Below are positions 31,769 through 47,790 of a stretch of DNA of 64,000 nt, piece by piece. Below the pieces are notes generated by a model that was not told the origin of the DNA, searched no databases, and was given only the letters and a program-made list of their open reading frames with translations. Each line of letters opens with the position of its first letter. Positions within the stretch are counted from its first letter, which is position 1. The position numbers and the translations under genes were made by a program. Location of the stretch: assembly GCA_965116875.1 (NCBI GenBank), contig OZ220733.1, positions 3,392,001 through 3,456,000 of the forward strand, written 5' to 3'. The stretch comes from Candidatus Latescibacterota bacterium. Its GTDB lineage: Bacteria; Latescibacterota; UBA2968; GCA-2709665.

Positions 31769-31783
31769 GTAGGACCGGCAGAC

Positions 31784-32200
31784 GGGCGACCACAAGGGTC
31801 GCCCCTGCAGATGGAATATCGGCGCGTGGAACATAAGCGCCTGGTTTGGTGATGGCAGCGCGGTCTTCTCGATTTCCAGGATCGAGGGCATCCTGCCCTC
31901 GTTGGCCGTTTCGCGAACGTGTTGGCTACCGTCAGGCGGGCGACCACAAGGGTCGCCCCTACATAGGAAATAAAGGTGCAAGGTTCCGGGATGGCAGCGT
32001 GGACCTTTCGATATCCAGGAGCGAGGGCATCCTGCCCTCGGTAGCCGTCTCGCGACAGCGTTGCGCTGCCGACAGGTGGGCGACCACAAGGGTCGCCCCT
32101 ACAAATGGAACATGGTCACATGGAACATAGGCGCAAGATCTGGTGATGGCAGCGCTGTTTTCTCGATTCTCCAGGAGCGAGGGCTTCCTGCCCTCGATAG
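31784..32200. repeat. Three tandem 140-154 bp units, each with two different REP palindromes
   Basis: GGGCGACCACAAGGGTCGCCCCT at 31784, 31938, 32078; CGAGGGC(A/T)TCCTGCCCTCG at 31883, 32022, 32178; shared GATGGCAGCG linker. Confidence 0.9.
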
Positions 32201-32281
32201 GCGCCTCGCGACGACGTTCTGTCTTAAAACCGCAGAAAGACATGCGGAAATGAGCGCGCGACCCCGTTTGATGGTCCAATC

Positions 32282-33096: not shown

Positions 33097-33291
33097 GCGG
33101 ACGTCCACGTAAAGATCGCCGTGTACTTCGCCGCCGGAACCCGACTGGTCTGGCTTGTGAAACCCGAGACCCGCATGGTACACGTCTACCGGTCACCACA
33201 GCAGGTCGAAGTTCTGGGACCGTAGGACGACCTCGAAGGCGGTGACGTGCTCCCCGGGTTCCGATGCCCCGTTCGGGGGCTCTTTCTTTAG
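33097..33291 (+). pseudogene. Uma2-family (PD-D/ExK) endonuclease C-terminal remnant
   Basis: Manual translation KIAVYFAAGTRLVWLVKPETRMVHVYRSP...GP*DDLEGGDVLPGFRCPVRGLF; internal TAG, no N-terminus. Confidence 0.8.
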
Positions 33292-33305
33292 GATCGTTCA
33301 TCACT

Positions 33306-35012
33306 ATGAGTCTCGAATTCGCGCTCACAGAGAATTTCGTCACGGTCTACTGTGTAGGTATTGTAGCGATCACTTCTATCTTGGCAATAAAGATGGCACG
33401 GAACGCGGTTCCCCTGTATGGTAGGCTTCGTAGCGCGAAGAAGGAATTGACAGACGTTAATGGATCAAAGGATTTCGTCGACGCGTTTGAAGAATACAAT
33501 ACCCATGTCGAGAAGGAACTGGGTCTTCCGTGGACGGAATTTGTAGAGACGCTGCTTCTTCCTGAACCTGAGTCTGGTGATCCCATCCGCAACACCGGTG
33601 ACGTGTCGCGGTACCTGAACGACGCCACCATTATATTTCCCAACATATCAACTGGTTTCTACCAAGCGGTCCCGAATCTGCTGACCGGCGTGGGCATCCT
33701 CGGTACGTTTCTCGGTCTGGCCGCCGGTGTCGGTGCAGCAAGCTCCGGTCTGGCCTCGAGCGATCCGGGAGAGATCACTACCGCCTTACATCGACTTCTG
33801 GGCGGGGCATCGCTGGCGTTCTGGACGTCTATTGTGGGAATAGTCTGTTCTATTCTTTTTGTGGTCGGCGAGCGGTCTGTCACTCGGAGACTACATATCG
33901 CGCTAGTCGATTGGGTTGGAGCCCTTGAGTCACGCTTGGAGCGGGTAACGCCAGAGGGCGTCGCGCTACAACAGCTTGAACAGGCAAGGCGTACGACGAC
34001 ACAACTCGAACGATTTAACACCGAATTGATTTTCTCTCTTGAGAAAGCGCTCGATGAGAAGATTGCGGGTCGGCTGTCGCCGCAGCTTGAGCAACTGTTA
34101 GAAGCGGTCGAGCAACTCCGCGCGGACCGGTCGACTGACAGCGGCCGGATGATCAACGATGCGCTCGACAGGTTCGCGGCCGCAATGCAAGATCGGGCGG
34201 GATCGCAGTTCGATGAGATGGCGTCGATAGTCGCCGACTTGAACCGCACACTGCAGGAGTCGGTTGCCGGACTGGCGCAGTCACAACAGGATGCCCGTAC
34301 GGCGGTCGATTCGGTCCTCACTGCGGTCACGACGTCTATGGATGAAGGTGCGAGCGCCATGAATAGGACGTTGAATGAGTCGCTGGTTGAAATCACAAGC
34401 GCCGTCGCGGCCGCATCTGAAGAAATGGTAGAACGAATGAAAACATCCAGCGCGACGGCTGCAGCTGAAATGTCGAAAACCGTTGGGTCCGTAACTGACA
34501 ACCTGCAGTCCGCGGCGGAGAGTCTCGATCAGTCCACGCGACAGAGTGAACAGGTCTTGAGTGGCATGACGTCGTTCGTCGAGAAGCTCAATGAGTTGCG
34601 CGGTACCATAGAATCGACACATCGCCATATTGGGTCTGCGACGGAACCTGTCGTAAGCGCCGCCCGCGAGATCCGCGAAGCGAGCGACAGAACCGCCGAA
34701 ACGCTGTCGACGACGAGCGACCTGGTGGGCCGCGTCGACGAAGTCGTGAATGCGCTTGAGCAGCACCAGCAGTCGATAGCAGACGCGTGGACGCGATACC
34801 AGGAGCGATTCGAAGACATCGACGGGTCACTTGTAGCGGTCTTCCGACAGATCGACGAAGGGCTGTCGGGGTATTGCCAGCAAGTAAGTGAGTTCGCCAA
34901 CGAACTTGATAAGACGACTTCGGGGACCATTAGAAACCTGGCTGGAGCAACCGCGGAACTCAACGAGTCCATTGAGGATTTGATCACGCGTCTACCTGGA
35001 TCGTCGCGATGA
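33306..35012 (+). CDS. zorA: Zorya ZorA (MotA-like TM region plus long helical tail)
   Basis: PNLLTGVGILGTFLGL and AFWTSIVG TM motifs followed by long alpha-helical tail; start uncertain (33264/33306). Confidence 0.92.
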   Translation: MSLEFALTENFVTVYCVGIVAITSILAIKMARNAVPLYGRLRSAKKELTDVNGSKDFVDAFEEYNTHVEKELGLPWTEFVETLLLPEPESGDPIRNTGDVSRYLNDATIIFPNISTGFYQAVPNLLTGVGILGTFLGLAAGVGAASSGLASSDPGEITTALHRLLGGASLAFWTSIVGIVCSILFVVGERSVTRRLHIALVDWVGALESRLERVTPEGVALQQLEQARRTTTQLERFNTELIFSLEKALDEKIAGRLSPQLEQLLEAVEQLRADRSTDSGRMINDALDRFAAAMQDRAGSQFDEMASIVADLNRTLQESVAGLAQSQQDARTAVDSVLTAVTTSMDEGASAMNRTLNESLVEITSAVAAASEEMVERMKTSSATAAAEMSKTVGSVTDNLQSAAESLDQSTRQSEQVLSGMTSFVEKLNELRGTIESTHRHIGSATEPVVSAAREIREASDRTAETLSTTSDLVGRVDEVVNALEQHQQSIADAWTRYQERFEDIDGSLVAVFRQIDEGLSGYCQQVSEFANELDKTTSGTIRNLAGATAELNESIEDLITRLPGSSR

Positions 35013-35890
35013 CGGGCGGCGACAAACAGATTCCGGACGCGGGTTCCGAAGGACAGAACTACCTCGCCACCGTAAGCGACCTCGTGTCGGCGCTCATATT
35101 TGTTTTCATCATCATGCTGGCTGTATTCGCGTACCAACTCGCAAACGTAATCGAGGATCAGGCCAAAGTCACGGATGAATTGACCGCTTCGGACGAAACG
35201 CGCGACCGCATGCTCCGAGACATCAAGAGTAGGCTCGAAAGATCCGGAATGCGGGTGGAAGTACTCGCTGATCAGGGTGTCTTGCGCTTGTCGGACAATG
35301 CAATCAATTTTCCGTCGGGCAGTGAGATTCCCGTTCCCAAACACCATATGAACGTCGGACGCCTCGCGCAAGCCATCGCCGAGGTGGTACCTTGCTATGT
35401 CTCTACCCCGAAGGCGGCCTCGGCAGCCCGCGACGATGACGACGTCGTGGTCGTGAAGTACGGCGATGACTCACCCACGTACTGCCAACCACGGGCCGAT
35501 CCCGCCAAATACCCATGTAGGGAGCAGGAATTTCGCTGGCTTCTGGAGACATTACTGATCGAGGGCCACACCGACGATGTACCGGTAGCTTCCGGCAATC
35601 GCTTCAAGGACAATCTTGAGTTGGCGTCGATGCGCGCAGCGACTGTCCATCGCATGATCGTCGCGTGCGAACCCGGATTGGAGGGTCTTCTGAACACCAA
35701 CGAATATCCCATTTTGAGCACAAGCGGGTATGGCTACACAAGGCCTGTGACCCGAGACCCGGAGCGGGCTGACGATAACCGGCGCATTGACCTGAGATTC
35801 CTGCTTGAGCCTCCCGCCGGGGCGCTGCACCAGAAGGCGCCGGAGGTCCAGACCGACGTCCACGAAAGGTATGATGAGGAATCACCGTGA
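35009..35890 (+). CDS. zorB: Zorya ZorB (MotB/OmpA-like)
   Basis: TM with conserved Asp (SDLVSALIFVF), IEGHTD, N.ELASMRA, NRRIDLRF; ATGA overlap with zorA. Confidence 0.93.
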   Translation: MTGGDKQIPDAGSEGQNYLATVSDLVSALIFVFIIMLAVFAYQLANVIEDQAKVTDELTASDETRDRMLRDIKSRLERSGMRVEVLADQGVLRLSDNAINFPSGSEIPVPKHHMNVGRLAQAIAEVVPCYVSTPKAASAARDDDDVVVVKYGDDSPTYCQPRADPAKYPCREQEFRWLLETLLIEGHTDDVPVASGNRFKDNLELASMRAATVHRMIVACEPGLEGLLNTNEYPILSTSGYGYTRPVTRDPERADDNRRIDLRFLLEPPAGALHQKAPEVQTDVHERYDEESP

Positions 35891-37650
35891 ATGCGCCCTC
35901 CCTGAAGGAATCGCTGGAGCGTTGGACCCGCCCGCAAAGGCTCCCACGCCACTTCGATCCGCACAGAACGCGTAAAGCAGCCGCAGAAGCAACGAAGACA
36001 CTTGGCGATGTCCAGCCGACAAAGCCAAAGGACTACGACCTTGAGATTCTGCATCGTAGGGTCGTGGAATTATGGCGTCGCAACCGCACTCTTTCTCGAA
36101 TCGTACCCCGTGATCTACGGCGTTTGCCGTGGGTTCTCTTTTACCCGCCAAAACAGACGCGTACCCGTTGGCTGGGTGCGGAACCACGCTTTCTGGAATT
36201 GTACGGCCGCTGGCTGATCGAAGGCCGCCGGTCCCGCGCCGTGATTGCGCTGCTGCACGAGTTTCTCCGTGTATATCCTGTCGGCTTGCGGACCTTTGGC
36301 GATCTGCGAAAAGTGCTGCATAAGGCCGTCAACAGCGGGTCATCGCTGCCTCCTTCTCTGCAGAAATGGCGAAAACGGTGCGGCGATTGGGAGCTCCTCA
36401 GTATGGGTGGCGATCGGTCGTTCGTGGAGAAGCTTCTCTCGGCGTCTGATGCCGTTGACGATATCCTTTTGCGTGCGGGGTTCGATCTCGGACTCGCACG
36501 CGCCGATTTCCTGAATTCGGGCATGCGGGCCTACCTCCCGCGCGCCGAATCGTTATTGAATCAAGGCCGCCTTGAGGCCGCACAAATTGACCGATTGCTC
36601 AAGCTCCTCGAATTCGACGGAAAACTGCGATTTGACAGTATAGCCATGCGCACCGACGTCGCGACGGCGCTGCTCCGTCCCTTTGTCGATCGATCTCCCG
36701 AACCGGCCACGAAGGAATGCCTGCAGCCATTCTTCCTGAGTCACTTCCGTGATCCTCGGCTGGGAATGGGGAAGCACAGGTGGTCAGGGGTTCCGGACGA
36801 AATCCGCCGTGTCGTAATCCGATGGCTCGTAGAACGAACACTCGAACAATTCTTCCTGCTTGTCAAGGAAACGGCACTCGACAGACACTGGCGCTACCGG
36901 GAAGCTTTCTGGCGGGCCTTTCACGAACACGGTCTGATCGATGACATCTGGTTTGTACTTGGTCCACGCGCAAAGGACATTCTGCGAAAGACGAACCAGA
37001 AGAACGACGAGTCGGAAACGAGCGCGGATCTCCACGGCGCCCAGGGCGACCAATCGGTGCTTGTTTTGCGAATGCCCGGTGTGACCATCGCAGAGTGGAG
37101 CCACAACGGCTCGTGTCGAATATGGCTCGATGGAAACAACGCAGCACCAGGGTTTTACGAGTCCAAATATTCTCGATATGATCTTATTGGCGGTGCGAAT
37201 TTCAAACAGGCGCACCAGGGAAGCGACCGCGGATTCTGGCAGGATAGAATTGCACAATGGTTGCGCGAAAATACTGGTGTCGAGATCGGTCGGAACGAGT
37301 ACTTTCCCGACCAGCTGCGTGAACGGCGAAACGACAGATACTCTCACATTGCATCCTCGACCCGGAGACAACGAATTCGGCCGGCTGCAGGCAGCAGGAG
37401 TCGCCCCGATCTACAATTCAAGCGAAAAAAGACGGCCGCGACCGTTATTCGGGAGTTGCGAAAGGTTCGGGACGCTGTAATCGGCTCTCCTAAGAGTCTA
37501 TTGGATCTACGTGATTTCATTAAATCGACCTCACCAGCATGGGCCGCATACGTAGAGGACCACGGAATTCCTGGTTATGAAACACAGTGGAAAACGTTAA
37601 CCGATCACTTGGACGCGACGATCAAACGTCTGCGAGTTGTAGGCAAGTGA
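35887..37650 (+). CDS. zorC: Zorya ZorC (EH-signature protein)
   Basis: F.DPR..W, R..FW, IAEWSHNGSCRIW, H.G...W; GTGA overlap with zorB. Confidence 0.88.
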   Translation: MNAPSLKESLERWTRPQRLPRHFDPHRTRKAAAEATKTLGDVQPTKPKDYDLEILHRRVVELWRRNRTLSRIVPRDLRRLPWVLFYPPKQTRTRWLGAEPRFLELYGRWLIEGRRSRAVIALLHEFLRVYPVGLRTFGDLRKVLHKAVNSGSSLPPSLQKWRKRCGDWELLSMGGDRSFVEKLLSASDAVDDILLRAGFDLGLARADFLNSGMRAYLPRAESLLNQGRLEAAQIDRLLKLLEFDGKLRFDSIAMRTDVATALLRPFVDRSPEPATKECLQPFFLSHFRDPRLGMGKHRWSGVPDEIRRVVIRWLVERTLEQFFLLVKETALDRHWRYREAFWRAFHEHGLIDDIWFVLGPRAKDILRKTNQKNDESETSADLHGAQGDQSVLVLRMPGVTIAEWSHNGSCRIWLDGNNAAPGFYESKYSRYDLIGGANFKQAHQGSDRGFWQDRIAQWLRENTGVEIGRNEYFPDQLRERRNDRYSHIASSTRRQRIRPAAGSRSRPDLQFKRKKTAATVIRELRKVRDAVIGSPKSLLDLRDFIKSTSPAWAAYVEDHGIPGYETQWKTLTDHLDATIKRLRVVGK

Positions 37651-37814
37651 GATTCTCAGTTGAGATATTAAAGGCGATCAGTGGAAGGCGAAAGCACATG
37701 ATCATACCATCTTTCCGTTAGATTAGAAGGCTGGGAAACCGGCCGGTTTTAAACAACTGAACTTGAGCGCAGACTTGGGCCTTGTATATATCCCAGGCCT
37801 GTCGAACGTATTCC

Positions 37815-40784
37815 ATGCCAAAACACTTTGTTTGCAATCCGACGTCAGACGGCCTGATCGTCGAAATGAAAGGCGATCCTCCGGTCCCGGTCAGTGAATG
37901 GACCGCACATGCGACCTGCGCCGGCGCCTTGATTCGACTGCGTGACGACGGCGGTGCAGTTGAGAACGAGAGCGGTAACGCACTGTGCGTCTCCTGGACG
38001 AGCGTCGCGGGACTGACGGAAGACGAACTGCGATTCACCGGTCTTCCCGACGCCGCGCCATTTGGGCTCGAAGTCGTCGCCAACGGCGCGATTCACGACC
38101 CCGGGTTCGATATCCGCTGCGGCTACATCAGGTATGGTCGACGCGTCCTCGGTGTTGAGCGAATCGGCGCATGGTTGCACGCAGGTGACGAAAACTTCGT
38201 TCTGCTCGATCCGTTATACTCTGTTGCCGAAGCCATTGGTCAATTCAAAGGGGAAGAAGAAAGGGATCTTGAATCGCGGATGCTCGGATGGGGACGCATC
38301 GCGGAGAAGCTGCCTGCTGATGTTGTTGTCGATGACGACAACCTCCGTTCGCTGCAAATCTACGTGGCGTCGAGTTTCGAACTCAACCCGTTCGTCAACG
38401 ACAATGGAGAGCCCGACTTCGATCCGGTAGTCGGGAGGCGCAAGACCCTCGTCACCGACGCCGGCGAGGAGGAGCAGGTGTTCGCCCGCGCATTGCCCCA
38501 GGCTCGGCAGGAGGAGTTCGCTCGTCGTTTCCGCGGCGTATCCACCGTGAAACATCGGTATGCGGCAGGCGGCGCCAGTTACGTTGTTCTGACGCCGGAA
38601 GTCGAGCGGGCACTCGGGGTGGTGCGGCGTGCTCAGGATGGAAGCACCGATGAGCGCCGCGACTTTCTGAGGAATGTCAGCGGGTACCTGCGCGAAGCGT
38701 TTGATGACGACGACAGCGACGAGATCGAACTGGACAGCGTTTTTAACGACGAGGGATTGAGCGAACGGGTAAAGGGCGTCGGCATCTGGGTCGACAAGGT
38801 GCTCCCATGGATCACGCTGGCGAAGGAGCCATGGTTGCCGCCCGAGGAATTTGGGATTCTGGTCGATGGACGGCGCTTGGTAATGCGGCCCGAAGAATTG
38901 GAAGGAATCTACGGGCAAATCAAGAATGCAATCGAGTGCGGCGAACCAGCCGCAATTGCCCGAATCGGTAACGAGTCTGTCGAAATCCCTGCTGACGAGG
39001 CCACCCTTAGTGCACTTGAGGATTTGCTTTCCCGGTTAGACCAGAAGCCGACATTAAGACCCGAAGACCACGAGGAGCAGGTCGAACCCGAAGATTCGGG
39101 TCAGGTTCTGCAGGTCATCGATAACCTGGATGATCTTCAATATCGACGCGAACGCAAACGACGCGCCACAGGTATCGCGGCAACCGCCCCCGACCTGCTG
39201 ACTCGAACCTTGCCCCACCAACAGGATGGTCTCGCGTGGCTCAAGAGTCACTGGGATGCCGGCAACTGGGGCGCCCTGCTTGCCGACGACATGGGACTTG
39301 GTAAGACGCTTGAAGCACTGGCTTTTCTCTCCTGTCTGAAAAGCTACGCGGAAACGGAGAATTTGTCACATCGACCGATACTTGTCGTCGCGCCGACCGG
39401 CTTGCTCCAGAACTGGAAGGACGAACACGACAAACATCTGTCCGGTGTCGGACTCGGTGTCGCCGTCGAAGCACACGGAAGTGCTCTGCGGCGCCTCAGA
39501 AAAGGAACGGTAACCGGACGCGCTGGTGAGCTCGCCAGCGGTCAACAGCTACTTGACCTACAGCCTTTAAGGAACGCCGAATGGGTACTCACCACTTATG
39601 AAACTCTCCGCGACTATCAACACAGCTTTGGCCGTATACGTTGGCGCGCAGGTGTCTTCGACGAGGCCCAAAAGATCAAGAACCCCGGCGCCCGCGTGAC
39701 CGATGCCGCGCTCGCCATGAATATTGATTTCTCCCTGCTGATGACCGGCACGCCCGTTGAGAATCGCCCATCGGAAATCTGGTCGATGCTTGACCGGGTC
39801 GAGCCCGGTATGTTCGGAACGCTTAAGGAGTTCAGCCAGCGGTATGAAGTTGATAGTGAAGGCGGCGCCTCGATGCTTACGGAATTGCATGAAAGGTTGA
39901 CGTCGGCATCCGACGCGCCGGCGCTAATGCTGAGGCGGCTCAAGGAGGACCACGTTCCGGAATTGCCGAAAAAAGAGGTGTATCGGCGCACCGTACTGAT
40001 GCCGCCGTTTCAGGCTGAAGCGTACGAAAGAATCGTACAGAACAGTAGCGGCGGCAACATGCTTCAGACGCTTCATCAGCTTCGAAGCGTCTCGCTCCAC
40101 CCCGCGGCTCCAGGCGAGTTCGACCTCGACGAGTTTATCCAGGCGTCGGCACGGTTGTCAGAGGCGTTCCGGATTCTGGATGAGATTGAAAACCTCGGAC
40201 AGAAAGCGCTGCTCTTCGTCGAGACGCGCTGGATGCAGGATTTCCTTGTAGGAGCACTGAGACGCCGTTATTCATTGTCCGACGACGTACTCGTCATCAA
40301 CGGTGCAGTGGCAGGCAGGATCCGCAAGACTCGCGTTGATACGTTTCAGGAACGGACAGGATTCGACGTGATGATTCTGTCGCCACGCGCCGGCGGCGTC
40401 GGTTTGACGTTGACGGCAGCAAATCACGTAATTCACCTCTCACGCTGGTGGAACCCGGCGGTCGAGGACCAGTGTACTGACAGGGTATTTCGTATCGGCC
40501 AGCGGGAGACGGTGTACGTGTACCTTCCGATCGCGCGTCATCCTGAGTTCGGAGAGTACAGTTTCGATATTCGGCTTGACAGCCTGATGGAAGGAAAGCG
40601 AGACATGAACCGTCGCGTGCTCGCGCCAACCGCGACGACGAAAGAAGACGTGAATAGTCTCTATAGAAGTACCGTGACGGACGCGCGAGGCGACATTGAT
40701 GAGAATGATGAACGGGGTCGGCTTCCCGTCGCCAGCGAAGTGTCTGGCGACAGCAAACAGCATACGGCTGGGGGACCGTCTTAA
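37815..40784 (+). CDS. zorD: Zorya ZorD SNF2-family helicase/ATPase
   Basis: LADDMGLGKT, DEAQKIKN, TGTPVEN, GVGLTLTAANHV, WWNPAVEDQCTDRVFRIGQ. Confidence 0.92.
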   Translation: MPKHFVCNPTSDGLIVEMKGDPPVPVSEWTAHATCAGALIRLRDDGGAVENESGNALCVSWTSVAGLTEDELRFTGLPDAAPFGLEVVANGAIHDPGFDIRCGYIRYGRRVLGVERIGAWLHAGDENFVLLDPLYSVAEAIGQFKGEEERDLESRMLGWGRIAEKLPADVVVDDDNLRSLQIYVASSFELNPFVNDNGEPDFDPVVGRRKTLVTDAGEEEQVFARALPQARQEEFARRFRGVSTVKHRYAAGGASYVVLTPEVERALGVVRRAQDGSTDERRDFLRNVSGYLREAFDDDDSDEIELDSVFNDEGLSERVKGVGIWVDKVLPWITLAKEPWLPPEEFGILVDGRRLVMRPEELEGIYGQIKNAIECGEPAAIARIGNESVEIPADEATLSALEDLLSRLDQKPTLRPEDHEEQVEPEDSGQVLQVIDNLDDLQYRRERKRRATGIAATAPDLLTRTLPHQQDGLAWLKSHWDAGNWGALLADDMGLGKTLEALAFLSCLKSYAETENLSHRPILVVAPTGLLQNWKDEHDKHLSGVGLGVAVEAHGSALRRLRKGTVTGRAGELASGQQLLDLQPLRNAEWVLTTYETLRDYQHSFGRIRWRAGVFDEAQKIKNPGARVTDAALAMNIDFSLLMTGTPVENRPSEIWSMLDRVEPGMFGTLKEFSQRYEVDSEGGASMLTELHERLTSASDAPALMLRRLKEDHVPELPKKEVYRRTVLMPPFQAEAYERIVQNSSGGNMLQTLHQLRSVSLHPAAPGEFDLDEFIQASARLSEAFRILDEIENLGQKALLFVETRWMQDFLVGALRRRYSLSDDVLVINGAVAGRIRKTRVDTFQERTGFDVMILSPRAGGVGLTLTAANHVIHLSRWWNPAVEDQCTDRVFRIGQRETVYVYLPIARHPEFGEYSFDIRLDSLMEGKRDMNRRVLAPTATTKEDVNSLYRSTVTDARGDIDENDERGRLPVASEVSGDSKQHTAGGPS

Positions 40785-41034
40785 TCTGCCGCGAATTCGT
40801 TCCGAAGGGAACGAAGCAATTGACCAGCCATGGTACGCTCAGTTCGGGTGTTTTGGGTTGTGAAATTCTCAGGTATGTGGTTGTTGTATCGAAGGGTGTT
40901 TGAATTCATAACAGAACTGGTGGATAAGAATGAAAACAAAGGATTTAACGATTCAGGCATTATTCAAGGATGGGACTGTATACGTAGCCAGGCGTTATCA
41001 ACGATCCAGAGACCCGTCATGCGGTAGGTCTTTT

Positions 41035-42246
41035 TTGCGCAACATTGTCATTGCCCTGGTTGTCTTCTTCGCTTACGGAGTCGCTAGTGCAGTTCAGGAG
41101 CAATCTGTATTTCGTGATATGCGTCTCGTACTAAGCTTTTACGATGACGCTGATAATCCACTCTTGGAGATGAGCGCCCCGAACGTCGGGCAATCGTTCA
41201 CGATTTACATGTTTGTCCCTGAAGCCGCCGGGATGCGCTCGGTAGGGTTTCAGGTCAATTTCCAATTCCTAAACCTCCGGAACATGTATCGGTTTACGAC
41301 AATCCTTAACGGTAACGCTTACGATGGGTCGGCACTGTTTGTCAACGAAGAATATCCGCAGGTCTCCGCGCTCCTAGTGAGCAAGCCGACAATTCCGGCC
41401 TCCGGTTTCATCGGGTCGGTGACCTTCAAGGTGCTAGAAGCGCTCCCGGAGGGTAACCGCTGGATCTTTTCGGGTCACGCGTCGATGGGAGATCCAGACA
41501 CGAACCAAAACGACCGACTGAACACCGACGATGGCTTGTTGAAACTGATTGGCAAACCGCAATACGTCGTCGCGTCGATTCCTGGTGACCTGGACTTGGA
41601 CGGCGATGTTGATTTCAATGATTTCCTTATCTTCACCGGCAACTACGGACGGGTCGGAGATCCGCCACAGGTCCCGGAGCCCCAGACCGTTTATGTCACG
41701 GTTCGGGATACGGTCTATATCGACCGCCCTGGGGCGGACACGCCACAAATGGCCCGTGCCCACTTTATGCAAGGCTTTTGGCATTTCGGCACTGCTTTTT
41801 CAGCTGACCAACCGCATCTGATTGACACATTTGGGGGTTTTCTTTTGGGTGAAATCCTCCACCCTGATCCCGACGAATACCCGGAACTAAAGGGCGAAAA
41901 GGTCGTGATGGGCGCTGCCTTCGATGGTTCGTTGGCGGCAATGGGATATAATCCCGACAACGAAAACTACATTTTGAGTTACAAGTTTGTAGATGATGAC
42001 GACTTGGAAGATGAATCTCTAGAATTCAGAATGATACAGAATAGGCCGATAGGTTTTTGGGTCAGTCGAAACCCGCAGACAGGCCAGATTATCAGCAGTT
42101 CGCTCCATATCAGCAATGACAGCGGCAAGGGATACCATCCCAACTCCGGATTTGTGAATCGCATGGCATCTGCAAATAAGGTGGCCGAAAGCGTCCCGGG
42201 ACACATGAGGTTTGTCGAACGGCTTGCTCGAATTATCAACCAATGA
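41035..42246 (+). CDS. Secreted protein with dockerin/EF-hand-like motif
   Basis: Signal peptide RNIVIALVVFFAYGVASA (TTG 41035 proposed; ORF open from 40930); GDLDLDGDVDFNDFLIFTGNYG. Confidence 0.7.
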   Translation: MRNIVIALVVFFAYGVASAVQEQSVFRDMRLVLSFYDDADNPLLEMSAPNVGQSFTIYMFVPEAAGMRSVGFQVNFQFLNLRNMYRFTTILNGNAYDGSALFVNEEYPQVSALLVSKPTIPASGFIGSVTFKVLEALPEGNRWIFSGHASMGDPDTNQNDRLNTDDGLLKLIGKPQYVVASIPGDLDLDGDVDFNDFLIFTGNYGRVGDPPQVPEPQTVYVTVRDTVYIDRPGADTPQMARAHFMQGFWHFGTAFSADQPHLIDTFGGFLLGEILHPDPDEYPELKGEKVVMGAAFDGSLAAMGYNPDNENYILSYKFVDDDDLEDESLEFRMIQNRPIGFWVSRNPQTGQIISSSLHISNDSGKGYHPNSGFVNRMASANKVAESVPGHMRFVERLARIINQ

Positions 42247-42351
42247 TCCATAAAACACGGCAAGCGTGACAGATAGGCGAATTAACGATTGTTTTCTTTT
42301 GGCGAACTATAAATGAAAGTGTCGGGGTTTTAGAATATGTCGATAAAAGAG

Positions 42352-42382
42352 TTGACCTATCGAATAGGTCATTAGATATTAT
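42352..42382 (+). promoter_or_regulatory. Candidate sigma70 promoter overlapped by palindrome TGACCTAT-CGA-ATAGGTCA
   Basis: TTGACC at 42352-57, AT-rich GATATTAT at 42375-82, perfect 8-bp inverted repeat at 42353-42371. Confidence 0.5.
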
Positions 42383-42486
42383 GCTCTAAAGAGCAGCGGC
42401 TCGATACTCCTTTCGCCTTGTCCGGCGCTCAAAACCTGCCGTATATCGGCAAAAACGCCGGACAAATTTGAAAGGAGGTGGGGCAT

Positions 42487-42642
42487 ATGTCTCAGGCAAC
42501 CCACTATCGGCCTCGAAGATATGGGGGATATTTCACGATTTATCGCCCATACTTCACCTCGCCGAGGGGGCGTCGCATCTACGCTAGGGATTATGGGTAT
42601 AAAGCATGGCCTATTAAAATCCCGAATGACCGTCGTAGGTAG
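42487..42642 (+). CDS. 51-aa Arg/Tyr-rich small protein of unknown function (absent from ORF track)
   Basis: MSQATHYRPRRYGGYFTIYRPYFTSPRGRRIYARDYGYKAWPIKIPNDRRR; GAAAGGAGGTG RBS; downstream terminator. Confidence 0.8.
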   Translation: MSQATHYRPRRYGGYFTIYRPYFTSPRGRRIYARDYGYKAWPIKIPNDRRR

Positions 42643-42680
42643 AATTACCGCTCGCCGCGCCTGAAGTCGCCTGTTTCTTC

Positions 42681-42710
42681 AACCCCCGATCTTCCCGGAT
42701 CGGGGGTTTT
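42681..42710 (+). terminator. Intrinsic terminator
   Basis: AACCCCCGATC-ttcccg-GATCGGGGGTT then TT. Confidence 0.8.
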
Positions 42711-42746
42711 CATCACCTTCAACCATTCACGCCAGGAAGTAGATGT

Positions 42747-43196
42747 CTAACAACCAAAGTCGCTTCGATTGTAATACAGGTAGATACCTCCGTTTAGCCA
42801 GGCTTCGGGTTTGGCGAATTGATATCGAATGAGAGTTTGTTTTGGATACATCCCGTTTTCAATAGCTTTTCCTATATACCAAATATGGGTGATATAACCG
42901 TGGCTCTCTCCTCTTTCTCCAGAACCATATGCCTGACGTAATTGCTCGAGAATAAACTTGAAAGTCTCACGAACTTTAGGGTCTGGCGATGGAAAAATGT
43001 ATTCCATTCCAACCAACATATCATTAAAAAACTGATATTTGATCGAATATGTCATCACAAGTGATTGTCCAGTGTATTTGTACCATTCATAGATATCTGG
43101 TCTGTTAATCAAAATTCTCCGATTGTTTATAATCAATGAGACGAATTTGAGAAGAGTGTTTTTAATGTTGTTAAAAAAGATCAGATGGTGTATCAT
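42747..43196 (-). CDS. Hypothetical protein or fragment, low GC
   Basis: Open frame with protein-like C-terminal half; start unreliable and overlaps the opposite ORF. Confidence 0.4.
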   Translation of the reverse strand: MIHHLIFFNNIKNTLLKFVSLIINNRRILINRPDIYEWYKYTGQSLVMTYSIKYQFFNDMLVGMEYIFPSPDPKVRETFKFILEQLRQAYGSGERGESHGYITHIWYIGKAIENGMYPKQTLIRYQFAKPEAWLNGGIYLYYNRSDFGC

Positions 43197-43203
43197 ATGG
43201 GTA

Positions 43204-43566
43204 ATGGATTATTTAATGAGTGTATTTCAAAAGCAGATGGCTCATGGATCACGAAGTACTTCCTTAAACCCCTTATTATGGATATTTGGGGTGTTGCTTT
43301 TTTCCTTATTCGTCATTAATTGTAAAACAGAGTTCAGCGGCATATGCTATTTGATAAGTGGTTTTCTTGTACTGAACATCCTTGCCATTTTTGCCGCTTA
43401 TGCGTATTTCGCGCATAAAGATCCAGATGCATTAAGATCGGAGCGTTTCTCCATTCAGAAATTGGCCATTGAAAAAGGATACTATGGTGATACTCTCACC
43501 GGCCCTATTGAAAAGGAAGAGGTTTCGCAGTCAAGTAGTAAGGGTCAGGGGGTTATAGGTGAGTAA
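43204..43566 (+). CDS. Small two-TM membrane protein, low GC
   Basis: STSLNPLLW, two hydrophobic helices, then KDPDALRSE. Confidence 0.7.
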   Translation: MDYLMSVFQKQMAHGSRSTSLNPLLWIFGVLLFSLFVINCKTEFSGICYLISGFLVLNILAIFAAYAYFAHKDPDALRSERFSIQKLAIEKGYYGDTLTGPIEKEEVSQSSSKGQGVIGE

Positions 43567-44138: not shown

Positions 44139-44740
44139 TGCCAATATAGAGTGAGACAACTCCCCCTTTGAGATTAATGTCGTAAAATGGGCGGAGAGGC
44201 GAACACGACATGACGTCAAGAATCGATGTTGGAGACAACGGCAGCACGAGGCCGGATCCGGAGGCGCCGACGCGTGCGAAGCGTCGCCGGTTCACCGCAC
44301 GGTACAAGCTTCGCATTCTGGAAGAGGCGGATGCTTTCCGGGTTCCTGGCGAAGTTGGCGCGCTGCTGCGTCGCGAAGGGTTGTATTCCTCGCAGTAGAC
44401 CCAGTGGCGTCGCGCGCGTCGTGAGGGTACGCTTAAGGCGCTATCCAGGCCGCGGGGACCCAAGGGGCGTCGTCGCGACGAGGTCGCCGTCGAGAACGAG
44501 CAGTTGCGCAAGGAAAACGCGCGGCTGCGGCGACGGCTGGAACAGGCGCAGACCATCCTCGAGATCCAAAAAAAAGCCTCCGAGATCCTGGGCATCCCCC
44601 TGAACCCTCCGTCGACCGACGACGACGTTTGATACGTGCGGCCGAACATCTCGCCCCGAGTGTGGGGTTGGCTTCAGCCTGCCGGGCATTGGGTGTGGCG
44701 CGGGCGTCCGTATACCGTCATCGCAAGCCACATCCAACTC
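44139..44740 (+). pseudogene. IS3-family remnant: left end, orfA (44210-44632) with internal TAG, start of orfB
   Basis: RRRFTARYKLRILEEAD...GALLRREGLYSSQ*TQWRR...ILEIQKKASEILG; orfB start ACRALGVARASVYR then truncated. Confidence 0.85.
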
Positions 44741-45129: not shown

Positions 45130-45324
45130 CTGGCGATTACGACGGTGGCTCCTCCCCCGACGCATCCGAGAGTTCTGCTGGGCGCCGAGGGAGTGGACGG
45201 GTTCAGCGAGAGGGCGAATGCGACAGCGGGATTTGTCGATAGGCTCGCGAGGGTGGCGTGACGAGCGTCCGCCAGCGAAGACCGTTTTGGCGCCGAGCAG
45301 GAACTCCTGTATTTCTGCAAGAAG
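45130..45324 (+). pseudogene. Degenerate copy of the 5' end of the heparinase-like gene
   Basis: TTVAPPPTHPRVLLGAEGVDG...GFVDRLARVA*RASASED.FG.E.EL.YFC versus TTVAPPETRPRVLLGAEEVDG...GFVDSLAEAAQEASANED.FG.E.EL.YFC; TGA at 45259. Confidence 0.85.
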
Positions 45325-45392
45325 ACGATTTTGACGTGAACGAAACGATCGAACGGAACCGCTCGCCGTGTTCCTTATCGAAGGGGTAAAAC

Positions 45393-45665
45393 ATGCGCAA
45401 GATTAATCTCAACGAAGCGAAGACCTGTCTTGCGTCACTGGTAAAAGAGGTTGCCAAAGGCGAGGAAGTAATAATCACCGAGGAAAGCGGTCTGGCATTC
45501 AGACTCGTTCCATTGGAAAAGGTAACAGGTTCGTCTGGCTTGGATCAAGGCAGGCTTTTCAATCCCGAAGGCTTGTGGGAACACGGGAAGCCGATTACCT
45601 CTGAAGACATTGCTGAAGTGCGAAGCGAAATGTGGCGAAAGTTCGATCAGAAGGATGAAACATAA
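45393..45665 (+). CDS. Phd/YefM-type antitoxin, no toxin visible
   Basis: INLNEAKTCLASLVKEVAKGEEVIIT. Confidence 0.78.
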   Translation: MRKINLNEAKTCLASLVKEVAKGEEVIITEESGLAFRLVPLEKVTGSSGLDQGRLFNPEGLWEHGKPITSEDIAEVRSEMWRKFDQKDET

Positions 45666-45921
45666 GGTATCTGGTCGCTGGCACGGATACGGTATCCCCG
45701 CGGCGTCAGCTCCACCTTACAGATAATGCGTTGCTGAAAGGACCAGGTGCCGGACAGGTGGTCCCACGAACCATAAAAGCGCGCGGCTTTACCCGGAAAG
45801 CTATCGTTGTTAGGCGCATAACCGGTTTAGATCCGGGTGAATTTCCCATCAATACGTACGACGTTACGAAAGCCAACCTACCTGTAAACGTATATTGACA
45901 GACCCGAAAGGGAGTCCACAA

Positions 45922-47790
45922 ATGAAACCCTTCTCTGAAGATCTGCTCGCGAAGCTGGCCAATACGACGGTGGCCCCTCCGGAGACGCGTCCGAGGGTGC
46001 TGCTGGGTGCCGAGGAAGTGGACGGAGTCCGGGAGCGGGCGAGGGCGACGCCGGGGTTTGTCGACAGCCTTGCGGAGGCGGCGCAAGAGGCGTCCGCGAA
46101 CGAGGATCTATTCGGCTCCGAGCCGGAACTTCCCTATTTCTGCCAGACGCCGCTCCGATCCCTGGCGAACGCCGCCTTCATCCTGGAGGACGAGGCATTC
46201 GCGGCCAGGGCGCTGGAGGGCGTGGAGGTGATGTTCTCGTTTCCGCCGGAGGAGTGGGTGGCGCGCCCGCACCGTCCCATGCGATGCGACCACGCCATGC
46301 TGAACGTGGCGTCCGCGATCGGTGTTTCAATGGATCTCTGCTCGCCGCTCTGGACGGCCGATGCGGTGGTGTCGATTTCAGAACGGATCAACACGTACAC
46401 GGTCGCGCGATTTCTCGAGACCTGGGAAAAGCAGGATGCGCACTGGTCCAGTCCCAACTACCACTGGAACTGGAAGATCATGTGCTGCGGCGAGATGGGG
46501 ACGGCGGCGATCGCGTGCGCGGAGGCCATTTCTGATTTTGACGCGGTCATGCAGGCGGCGCTTGCGGGGTGTCTGGATATTCTGGATTTCGTGCCGCCGG
46601 AAGGAGACTGGGCGGAGGGCCCCGGGTATTGGCTTGGCACCCTGGGGCACGGTGTGAGATTCGGCGTTGGGCTGCGGCGGGCAACGGGCGGAACGGTGGA
46701 TCTGTTCGAACATCCCGCGTTAAGGGAAACCGGGGACTACATCGTTCACGTGACCGAACCCGACGGGCAGGTCTACAATTTCAATGACAACGGCATTTCC
46801 CTCGGTTCCAGTCTCGACTATCTGCTGCTGCTGGCAAAGCTGAACAGACGGGGAGACTGGGCCCGGACCGCACGGGCAAGCGACCACGCAACCGTGGAGC
46901 GGCTGATTTGGGACGATCCCTCGGTGCCCGACGCCATTCCCGACGAGACGTCTCGAAGTTATCCGACAACGGGCGTTGTAACGATGCGCAGCGGGTGGGA
47001 GAACCAGGCCACGTTCGTCGGATTGAAGTCCGGTTCGAGCGCCGTCGGCCATTCGCAGCTGGACGCGAACTCATTCGTCGTCTCCTCGCGCGGAGAACGG
47101 CTGTTGATCGACGAGGGGATCTGGCCCTACGGCCACGACCTGGGATTCTTCGACAGCGACGGTGGAATGCGGTGGAATTTCGACGGCAACGGCACGATCG
47201 GCCACAACACGCTGATGGTGGACGGCGAGGGACAGCGATACGGGGCCGACTATCCTGGCAGAATCGTCTCTTTCGACGCCGGCCGGGAGATGGACGTGGC
47301 GGTTGCCGACGGCACGGCGGCATACGGAGGCAGGCTGAAACGATATCTGCGGACGCTGGTCTTTGTGAAACCCGACGTGGTCCTGGTCTGGGACCGGGTT
47401 TCGTCGGAGGAGCCCCGGGTGTTGGAATGGCTGTTTCACCACCGGGCGGATGTGTCCGGCGACGAGCGGCTGACCCGGTTCACGCGGAACGGCGTGACGC
47501 TGTCTCTGTCCAGGGTGATTCCGGAGCAAATGGAATGCTGGCGGCTGAGCGACGTGAAACGCACCAGTACGTATACCGAATCAAACCAGTTTCATCCGAA
47601 GCGAGTCAGCATTGAATACCGGGGTTTCGGGCCGTTTCATCCCTGCCGGGAAATCCAGGTATTATGGGGTATTCACGTGGGAGACGCTTCCGAACTACCG
47701 GAGTTCGACGCATGGGTCGAGGAGGGGGCAGCCACGGTCAGCGTGCAGTTCCGCGACGGCGATGAGCGAGTCGTGAGTTTACCGGAATAA
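45922..47790 (+). CDS. Heparinase II/III-like polysaccharide lyase family protein
   Basis: NW..C, GDW.EG.GYW, NFND, MRSGW, GH.QLDANSF, HNTLMVDG.GQ. Confidence 0.85.
   Translation: MKPFSEDLLAKLANTTVAPPETRPRVLLGAEEVDGVRERARATPGFVDSLAEAAQEASANEDLFGSEPELPYFCQTPLRSLANAAFILEDEAFAARALEGVEVMFSFPPEEWVARPHRPMRCDHAMLNVASAIGVSMDLCSPLWTADAVVSISERINTYTVARFLETWEKQDAHWSSPNYHWNWKIMCCGEMGTAAIACAEAISDFDAVMQAALAGCLDILDFVPPEGDWAEGPGYWLGTLGHGVRFGVGLRRATGGTVDLFEHPALRETGDYIVHVTEPDGQVYNFNDNGISLGSSLDYLLLLAKLNRRGDWARTARASDHATVERLIWDDPSVPDAIPDETSRSYPTTGVVTMRSGWENQATFVGLKSGSSAVGHSQLDANSFVVSSRGERLLIDEGIWPYGHDLGFFDSDGGMRWNFDGNGTIGHNTLMVDGEGQRYGADYPGRIVSFDAGREMDVAVADGTAAYGGRLKRYLRTLVFVKPDVVLVWDRVSSEEPRVLEWLFHHRADVSGDERLTRFTRNGVTLSLSRVIPEQMECWRLSDVKRTSTYTESNQFHPKRVSIEYRGFGPFHPCREIQVLWGIHVGDASELPEFDAWVEEGAATVSVQFRDGDERVVSLPE

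Follow-up and report, generated by a model that had tools for sequence, protein, structure and literature searches.

A moron-like unit for a small basic protein of probable mobile-element origin beside a Zorya operon in a Latescibacterota genome

We analyzed a 64,000-nt stretch of the genome of Candidatus Latescibacterota bacterium (GenBank assembly GCA_965116875.1, contig OZ220733.1, positions 3,392,001 to 3,456,000 of the forward strand), hereafter the window, and focused on a short unit around its positions 42352 to 42712 that encodes an unannotated 51-amino-acid (aa) protein, P0002. In our reading, the unit is probably an orphan, moron-like accessory gene of mobile-element origin for a likely nucleic-acid-binding protein, whose translation would be tuned down by the leader of its own transcript. 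Judged by sequence comparison, the protein belongs to a family that is new to annotation, unnamed, and made up of hundreds of conserved proteins in phages, plasmids, and defense islands across distant phyla. A preliminary description of this DNA had outlined a self-contained small-protein unit in a defense region, with a palindrome over a TTGACC −35 element, nested leader pairings that sequester a very strong Shine-Dalgarno (SD) sequence, a basic, aromatic, non-membrane 51-aa peptide, and a terminator. All of these parts were recovered in our analysis, as detailed below, whereas the cis RNA switch and the atypical type I toxin that it had also suggested were not supported.

P0002 is hydrophilic and strongly basic, with an isoelectric point of 10.98, a net charge of +10.6, 11 Arg and 8 Tyr residues, a grand average of hydropathy of −1.34, and a longest hydrophobic run of two residues. 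It matched no Pfam or NCBIfam family and no named PHROG, and a word-indexed search with P0002 alone returned nothing. In relatives' genomes, this single-protein search gave only chance-level matches (best E-value 0.077), and the G021 match looked like chance as well. An exhaustive phmmer search over 1.84 billion representatives recovered 17 proteins of 38–70 aa at E≤1e-3 (best 3.9e-6), and of 839 candidates from a search with the family profile, 462 proteins reached E≤1e-3. The family core reads (V/I)(I/F)R(P/A)(Y/W)xTxKxGxR(I/L/V)YAxxYGxKA(W/F)P(I/L). Members are about 40–50 aa long and very basic, and the only two longer forms found probably reflect mis-called starts. A 121-aa form with a C-terminal extension of about 85 aa lies at L024:3977-4342 (loci of family members are numbered with the prefix L). 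Among the 120 profile matches listed, none had a Pfam domain or a name beyond "hypothetical protein". Queries of the ESM Atlas with two homologues led to "hypothetical" clusters only, some of them viral, and PADLOC returned nothing relevant for 18 family members. Five family peptide strings were printed in no relevant paper and gave one unrelated hit, in a literature search whose scope stopped short of the supplementary tables of the CapH/CapP preprint.

To follow the family at the DNA level, we used pattern scans that yielded 9 usable genome loci, 45 metagenome loci, and 16 IMG/VR loci. The related-locus search used the subsets A2 and A7, the 18-sequence alignment being too diverse, and two loci, L031 and L033, were discarded because their ORFs (open reading frames) are long and unrelated and share only the search pattern. 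Over 27 core codons, the ratio of nonsynonymous to synonymous differences per site (pN/pS) was 0.16, 0.12, 0.25, and 0.30 in four subgroups of these loci, with 0.63–0.74 synonymous differences per site; one of the ten sequences in the third subgroup was excluded for not fitting the core pattern. A contig from the sequencing run X16, 95% identical to the window, carries four changes within codons 17–43, all of them synonymous, and its amino-acid changes (H6R, Y12H, F16S, K44R, and N47I) all fall in the variable tails. The low pN/pS together with the purely synonymous core changes therefore argue that the ORF is a true coding gene under purifying selection, in agreement with the homologues under coding constraint that the preliminary description had counted on.

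The family is sporadic and is carried by phages, plasmids, and islands rich in transposons or integrases. It is single-copy in the window's genome and was found in three of 168 genomes of the phylum and in none of 14 genomes of the same genus; a search of 40 relatives for the 1.8-kb stretch that includes the upstream gene gave nothing beyond a short match that is unrelated. Three named phages carry relatives at E≤5e-3, and weaker tblastn matches (E 0.3) were obtained in four Ralstonia phages. In Escherichia coli phage LLS, the relative is an ORF without annotation that separates the lysogeny genes from the invertase/tail-fiber region; in a Bordetella prophage, it lies between an XRE regulator and the lysis cassette; and Microcystis phage MACPNOA1, Bacillus plasmids, and an Agrobacterium plasmid carry further relatives. 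Integrase, terminase, or portal genes are adjacent to the family gene in viral loci. The neighbor scan covered 143 of 157 listed ORFs (14 from L021, L022, L042, and L070 were left out) and revealed no universal partner gene among them. Frequent neighbors were genes of mobile elements and defense, namely integrase, several transposases, TIR, RelA/SpoT, KAP NTPase, Fic, PIN, NYN, and HTH_3, and a cluster of IS1-like transposases adjoins the family gene in 13 of 54 loci, some of which are duplicates. At one locus (L037:1507-1629, minus strand), a SAM-I/IV riboswitch-like match of 36.8 bits, against a gathering score of 41.1, was noted about 1.4 kb from the family gene.

This distribution, with sporadic occurrence and relatives resident in phages, is that of a moron. 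Phage morons are described, in the portion of PMC3594210 drawn on here, as independent promoter-gene-terminator units added to phage genomes. Like them, the window unit sets a single small gene between a promoter-like site and a terminator, at a lower G+C content (0.46–0.47) than its neighbors (0.51–0.60), and its relatives sit at the borders of phage and prophage modules, by integrase, lysis, terminase, or tail-fiber genes. It differs in that it lies in a chromosomal defense island beside a Zorya operon, outside any recognizable prophage, and in having no known host benefit.

The genome's own 16S rRNA ends in GAUCACCUCCUUUCU, and 11 nt of the SD GAAAGGAGGUG are complementary to this end; the 16S:SD duplex, which has 12 pairs when folded, is at −20.4 kcal/mol. 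Within the leader, CUCCUUUC repeats 8 nt of the rRNA tail letter for letter and pairs with 8 nt of the SD (42470–42477) without a mismatch, and the 10-nt helix nested inside it (42418–42427 with 42456–42465) is likewise 100% complementary; the inner TGCCG/CGGCA hairpin is present in the minimum free energy (MFE) fold. The predicted MFE of positions 42385–42500 was −48.8 kcal/mol, compared with a shuffle mean of −30.2 (z −5.12; none of 200 shuffles was as stable), and this leader is the most extreme structure among 41 family leaders. The estimated cost of opening the SD is 18.7 kcal/mol at 15 °C, 14.6 at 37 °C, and 12.8 at 45 °C. By this thermodynamic estimate, the net affinity of the SD is about −6 kcal/mol, similar to that of an ordinary SD, and we therefore infer attenuation by competition instead of a tight off-switch: the leader would subtract about 15 of the roughly 20 kcal/mol of ribosome-SD affinity and dampen translation, and would not be a ligand-gated switch. 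The helix with the anti-SD does not include three bases of the SD, and these could, according to the model, offer a toehold.

SD-sequestering leaders, which we take to include those of the type I toxin mRNAs tisB, zorO, and aapA1 and RNase III-activated phage leaders, share with the window an upstream, CU-rich anti-SD whose helix with the SD encloses an inner hairpin. In the window, however, an SD of 11 nt faces an anti-SD of 8 nt, leaving a toehold and a favorable net energy, the encoded protein is no membrane peptide, and there is no evident antisense RNA. The leader is not repeated elsewhere in the genome. No match in Rfam 15 exceeded its gathering score in the window (best 18.9 bits against 33), and nothing was found in the leaders of eight related loci. 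The window's leader does not align with the leaders of its nearest relatives, and a consensus fold of five relatives recovered the inner hairpin only, not the outer anti-SD/SD helix. Among the nearest protein relatives, L036, L037, L041, L052, and L066 place a CU-rich, anti-SD-like stretch 55–70 nt before the SD.

Across the family, very long SDs and structured or palindromic upstream DNA are, at the level of sequence, shared traits, whereas SD occlusion is not. Perfect complements of the 16S tail of at least 9 nt were found in 17 of 42 non-redundant loci; among control ORFs taken from these loci, the count was 4 of 255 (Fisher 6e-13). The 100 nt upstream of family genes had a mean structure z-score of −1.86, with 18 of 41 below −2, compared with −0.41 and 9 of 90 in controls (Mann-Whitney 4e-7), and inverted repeats at −200 to −50 beat shuffles (p<0.05) in 18 of 54 loci. 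SD pairing, on the other hand, was not enriched (0.64, n=40, versus 0.63 in controls, n=128; p 0.29), long-range anti-SD duplexes beat shuffles (p<0.05) in only 2 of 41 loci (combined p 0.36), and many relatives have an exposed, very strong SD. The cis RNA switch of the preliminary description thus found no counterpart in Rfam or in the family statistics. In a separate subgroup (L038, L040, L042, L043, L044, and L049), the family ORF lacks an SD and a conserved hairpin CAATCGG...CCGATTG lies about 110 to 40 nt before its ATG; the loop holds GGGAGGTGAAAAATG, a strong SD plus the ATG of a short ORF in another frame, an arrangement that suggests upstream-ORF coupling in this subgroup.

The borders of the unit, and a hint of its transcript, came from contigs of the runs X16, X2, X4, and X5, in which parts without cover were not counted as evidence; the whole compared stretch occurred in one sequencing run only, possibly the source itself. 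In X16, a run labeled as a metatranscriptome, a 287-nt contig (depth 14) covers 42397–42683 and nothing else of the 1401 nt compared, so that it spans from about 10 nt past the expected transcript start to the foot of the terminator. It shows one listed substitution in the 90 nt of the leader and 12 in the 156 nt of the ORF (Fisher p 0.02), with 13 of its 15 differences listed and two unplaced; the leader change, 42465 A>G, turns a U-A into a U-G and keeps the pair. A contig of another organism in X4 covers 41900–42748 at about 93% identity and then diverges, and contigs in X2 (a sponge metagenome) and X5 (labeled organism C) cover only 42745–43101, with other flanks. From this coverage, the unit therefore travels with the gene upstream of it, which encodes a 438-aa protein, and separately from a low-G+C block downstream. 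That block (42745–43196) contains a 149-aa ORF at 42747–43196 on the minus strand, which stands by itself in the X2 and X5 contigs and had no Pfam, PADLOC, or PHROG match.

The palindrome over the −35 element is a candidate operator. Its 8-nt arms, TGACCTAT and ATAGGTCA, are 100% complementary around a CGA spacer; it was the best inverted repeat within −200 to −50 (p about 0.03 against 100 dinucleotide shuffles), and the site is unique in the 5.45-Mb genome within two mismatches. No regulator gene cognate to it is adjacent in the window. An inverted pair TAGGT...ACCTA occurs upstream in 7 of 54 loci, compared with 0.4 expected (p 0.003; the motif was chosen post hoc). These loci are the window, L025, L053, L054, L032, L057, and L068; they represent three lineages, with positions from −165 to −112, and in the window the half-sites stand in the opposite order.

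Relatives are usually stand-alone units preceded by a putative regulatory gene, typically across a gap of 75–300 nt. An ImmA/IrrE-like metalloprotease lies directly upstream and co-directional in L021, L111, L123, L125, L073, and L098, which belong to different subgroups and hosts, and a helix-turn-helix (HTH) gene stands before the protease in all of them but L111, whose upstream ORF had no HTH match. L126 has the same layout by appearance and was not part of the domain scan, bringing the count to 6–7 loci. In eight loci, a coiled-coil protein with weak winged-helix matches, forming one phmmer cluster, is found upstream, and similar singletons occur elsewhere. The window itself has neither an HTH nor an HExxH protease gene directly upstream, where the 438-aa gene lies. 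Modules of Xre-COG2856 with a third, toxin-like gene, for which RelE and PIN toxins were proposed, are described in the portion of Makarova et al. (2009, PMC2701414) used here, and HTH/protease pairs that derepress cargo upon DNA damage in the corresponding portion of Lau et al. (2022, bioRxiv 10.1101/2022.04.27.489752). As far as these portions of the two sources go, such modules appear to be the nearest described frameworks for the 6–7 triad loci.

The likeness to HTH plus ImmA/IrrE-type systems (ImmR/ImmA, DdrO/IrrE, CapH/CapP, and the Xre-COG2856 triads) lies in the family gene directly following the protease, and HTH repressors of this kind would act at a −35 element, where the window has its palindrome. 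The difference is that the window has no such adjacent regulators and that CapH/CapP regulators, in the part of the source at hand, are divergent from their cargo, whereas those of the family are co-directional. The repressor-type genes before the family gene in relatives fit a repressed, inducible gene. The phrase "doubly repressed, inducible" in the preliminary description is supported insofar as relatives often follow repressor-type genes and the SD is paired; the energy balance points to attenuation by the leader and not to a tight off-state.

The structure of P0002 was modeled with AlphaFold2 from an 86-sequence alignment, and the model confidently predicts a compact three-stranded beta-sheet (strands 15–24, 30–32, and 41–46, with a short turn at 33–36). 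The mean predicted local distance difference test score was 81.9, reaching about 96–97 for residues 21–40 when averaged in blocks of ten. Foldseek found nothing below E 1.6 in the PDB; in BFVD, it matched two uncharacterized Siphoviridae proteins (36–37% identity, root-mean-square deviation 0.7–1.6 Å) that are evidently family members. The commonest weak Pfam match was Arm-DNA-bind_4 (PF14657), seen in 10 of 86 members with a best E of 0.002; no member reached its cut-off of 22.3 bits, and P0002 itself had no match. When the family was compared by hhalign with 17 Arm-DNA-bind_4 domains from Clostridia genomes, P was 0.011 and the probability 4%, and the invariant glycines of both families were aligned with the same 9-residue spacing. 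The family resembles the domain in its predicted small three-stranded sheet, in two invariant glycines nine residues apart, and in recurrent weak matches, and it differs in that it is stand-alone, has no helix after the sheet, and stays below the curated cut-off. On these sequence comparisons, the likeness is a lead and does not amount to membership.

Ribosomal protein bL34 was also tried as a relative and rejected. When PDB sequences were searched with the 18-sequence profile, it came out on top (E 0.063; five of eight rows were bL34), and it resembles the family in size, charge, and an F-R-x-x-x-x-T-K-N-G-R-like stretch. With the 86-sequence profile, however, the match dropped to E 0.31, and hhalign against six bL34 sequences gave a probability of 0.2%. 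PF00468 recovered the true rpmH in all six genomes searched and did not list the family ORF of the window's genome at E≤10. Beyond these failed profile comparisons, the family differs in its predicted beta-sheet fold.

The features of the unit and its gene neighborhood are summarized in Table 1.

Table 1. Coordinates of the unit, its presumed signals, and the genes upstream (window positions)
Feature	Position	Strand	Basis or remark
ZorA1	33264..35012		PADLOC
ZorB1	35009..35890		PADLOC
ZorC1	35887..37650		PADLOC
ZorD1	37782..40784		PADLOC
Upstream gene, 438-aa protein	40930..42246
Candidate sigma-70-like promoter, TTGACC (−35, 42352-57), 17 nt, GATATT (−10, 42375-80)	42352..42380	+	consensus scan, 9/12
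Perfect palindrome TGACCTAT-CGA-ATAGGTCA over the −35, candidate operator	42353..42371		arms 42353-60/42364-71
5' leader (presumed start), single long nested hairpin	42387..42486	+	MFE fold
Anti-SD CUCCUUUC, identical over 8 nt to the 16S 3' tail of the genome	42407..42414	+
Inner hairpin, 10-bp stem and 5-bp apical stem	42418..42465	+
Shine-Dalgarno GAAAGGAGGUG	42470..42480	+	ends 6 nt before ATG; GGAGG core ends 8 nt before
Coding sequence of the 51-aa basic protein P0002, unannotated family member	42487..42642	+	ATG at 42487, stop codon ends at 42642
Intrinsic terminator, 11-bp stem, 6-nt loop, T run	42681..42712	+	arms 42681-91/42698-708, 11 nt, 100% complementary, then TTTTCATC
Module boundary, contigs of relatives diverge	42745..42748		contig comparison

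The four upstream zor genes form a complete Zorya type I operon, with PADLOC E-values from 1e-47 to 6e-287, and the placement in a defense region therefore holds. P0002 is not one of ZorA–D and, with no PADLOC match for the 18 family members, not a conserved accessory of them; Zor domains were likewise absent from the neighbor ORFs of relatives that were scanned. The 438-aa protein between the operon and the unit has a hydrophobic segment at its N-terminus together with a DLDLDGDVDFNDF motif of dockerin-like type, and it gave no family match, no Pfam match, and no HExxH. Several further observations concern the surroundings. At the left edge of the island, just after a gene for a thiamine pyrophosphate (TPP) enzyme, three tandem units of about 140–154 nt (31774–32218) are 78–88% alike and each contain GC-rich hairpins. 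Downstream of the unit, a 147-aa ORF (43123–43566) with apparent membrane segments matches phrog_27377, of unknown function (E 1.8e-15). Short ORFs at 44210–44650 and 45393–45665, without Pfam matches, can be read from their sequence as putative IS3-type transposase remnants and are followed by a gene for a 90-aa Phd/YefM antitoxin-like protein (Pfam E 8.5e-8), for which no toxin partner is apparent. A direct repeat of 198 nt (76% identity) occupies 45130–45327 and 45955–46152; the second copy is the 5' end of a heparinase II/III-like gene (45895–47790) and the first a fragment, an arrangement suggestive of a partial duplication at the island's right edge.

Taken as a moron-like orphan, the window copy, which has no adjacent regulator, would probably be transcribed from its own palindrome-overlapped promoter to its own terminator. 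Its very strong SD, a family trait, would be damped in the window's lineage by the mimic of the 16S tail in the leader. The product would bind nucleic acid, DNA being likelier than RNA, and could serve the mobile element as a regulator or effector, and the palindrome may be bound by the protein itself or by a repressor whose gene lies elsewhere. The earlier view of an inducible, repressed nucleic-acid-binding peptide is compatible with this reading, and the roles as anti-repressor or defense trigger that it put forward are conjectural. Several points weigh against it. Only charge, fold type, and context point to nucleic-acid binding, and the modeled fold resembles no solved structure. The TTGACC-17-GATATT promoter is plausible by sequence, but with three promoter-like sites in the region against 2.5 expected from shuffles, the promoter call by itself is not above chance. 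Because RNA libraries can contain DNA and the contigs carry no ends or strand, the X16 contig is only a hint of a transcript, and its contrast between leader and ORF would vanish if both unplaced differences fell in the leader. The winged-helix matches upstream of relatives are all below the Pfam cut-offs, the family-wide statistics overstate the evidence because the loci are related and not independent, and the upstream structures and palindromes may in part be terminators of preceding genes. Finally, since SD occlusion is not a family trait, the leader of the window could be a lineage-specific accident.

We weighed this moron-like reading against five others. The product could be an inducible growth-arresting effector, the third part of an Xre/HTH plus COG2856 stress module that has been orphaned here and is quieted by the leader. 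The six loci with a co-directional protease directly upstream, five of them with an HTH gene, the three-gene modules with a toxin-like component in the cited portion of PMC2701414, and the position beside Zorya all fit such an effector, and a gene with a very long SD would lend itself to a burst of synthesis once derepressed. The layout is, however, limited to 6–7 of about 76 loci, the window has no such regulators nearby, PADLOC recognized none of 18 family members, many relatives expose a strong SD with no evident antidote, and the regulators are co-directional with the gene, unlike those of CapH/CapP in the source at hand. We regard this effector as possible, if rather unlikely. A stand-alone arm-type DNA-binding domain, comparable to the N-terminal domain of tyrosine integrases and acting as a recombination-directionality or regulatory factor that perhaps binds its own upstream inverted repeats, would agree with the predicted sheet, with Arm-DNA-bind_4 as the most frequent weak match and its aligned glycines, with an integrase or attP nearby in several phage loci, and with the TAGGT...ACCTA pairs. 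It seems doubtful, as all Pfam matches are below the cut-off, the hhalign probability is low for a target family picked post hoc, the helix after the sheet and any structural match are missing, and the TAGGT test was post hoc, covers three lineages, and involves reversed half-sites in the window.

The remaining alternatives turn on the leader or on the identity of the protein. If the leader were a trigger-responsive cis RNA switch (a riboswitch, a thermometer, or one dependent on RNase III or a protein), translation would be off until a signal arrives; the very stable and specific fold, the apparently higher conservation of the X16 leader with its single, pair-keeping change, the drop in SD opening cost between 15 and 45 °C, and the anti-SD-like stretches of the five nearest relatives are in its favor. 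Set against these are the empty Rfam searches, a plain extended hairpin without a junction or conserved loop, the failure to align with relatives or to recover the outer helix, the negative family-wide tests, and a net SD affinity that is still favorable, and we consider such a switch decidedly improbable. A type I toxin-antitoxin system, in which SD sequestration keeps a toxin mRNA inert and an antisense RNA comes from the opposite strand, would account for the sequestered SD of the primary transcript, and the minus strand offers a promoter-like TTAATA-16-CATAAT at 42617–42590, while the palindrome scores as a weak minus-strand terminator. Type I toxins are usually small hydrophobic or membrane-active peptides. 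P0002 is hydrophilic, highly charged, and not membrane-active; the minus-strand promoter scores 9/12, with two changes in its −35 in relatives (42612 and 42617) and a −10 that merely mirrors conserved Asp-Tyr-Gly codons; the RNA-library contig ends at 42397, short of the proposed antisense end; and phages carry the family as a single gene with an exposed SD. The atypical type I toxin of the preliminary description is accordingly very unlikely. A divergent paralogue of bL34, suggested by the top match of the first profile, is hardly credible given the weaker match with the larger profile, the hhalign result, the behavior of PF00468, and the beta-sheet fold.

No new kind of system emerges from these results. 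They do leave room for a bolder conjecture, to which we give little credence: that the family is an unrecognized class of mini DNA-binding proteins carried by phages and mobile elements, each a three-stranded sheet of about 30 residues, which repressor modules that sense damage or stress would release upon induction. They would bind TAGGT-type inverted repeats upstream of their own genes, be made in a burst from an exceptionally strong ribosome-binding site upon derepression, and switch the state of the element or shut down the host as a new anti-phage or anti-defense effector; the window copy would be an orphan that was domesticated next to Zorya and is restrained by the 16S-tail mimic.

The unit represents a family that combines a confidently predicted, unmatched fold with extreme ribosome-binding sites and a recurrent place behind repressor/protease modules, and genes as short as this one escape routine annotation. 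In the leader of the window, an exact copy of the 16S anti-SD opposes an SD of unusual length, which would make it a neat natural case of translation tuned by competition. The relative in coliphage LLS, which infects E. coli K12, makes the family directly testable, and its function, once learnt, would add to how mobile elements regulate themselves or interfere with their hosts.

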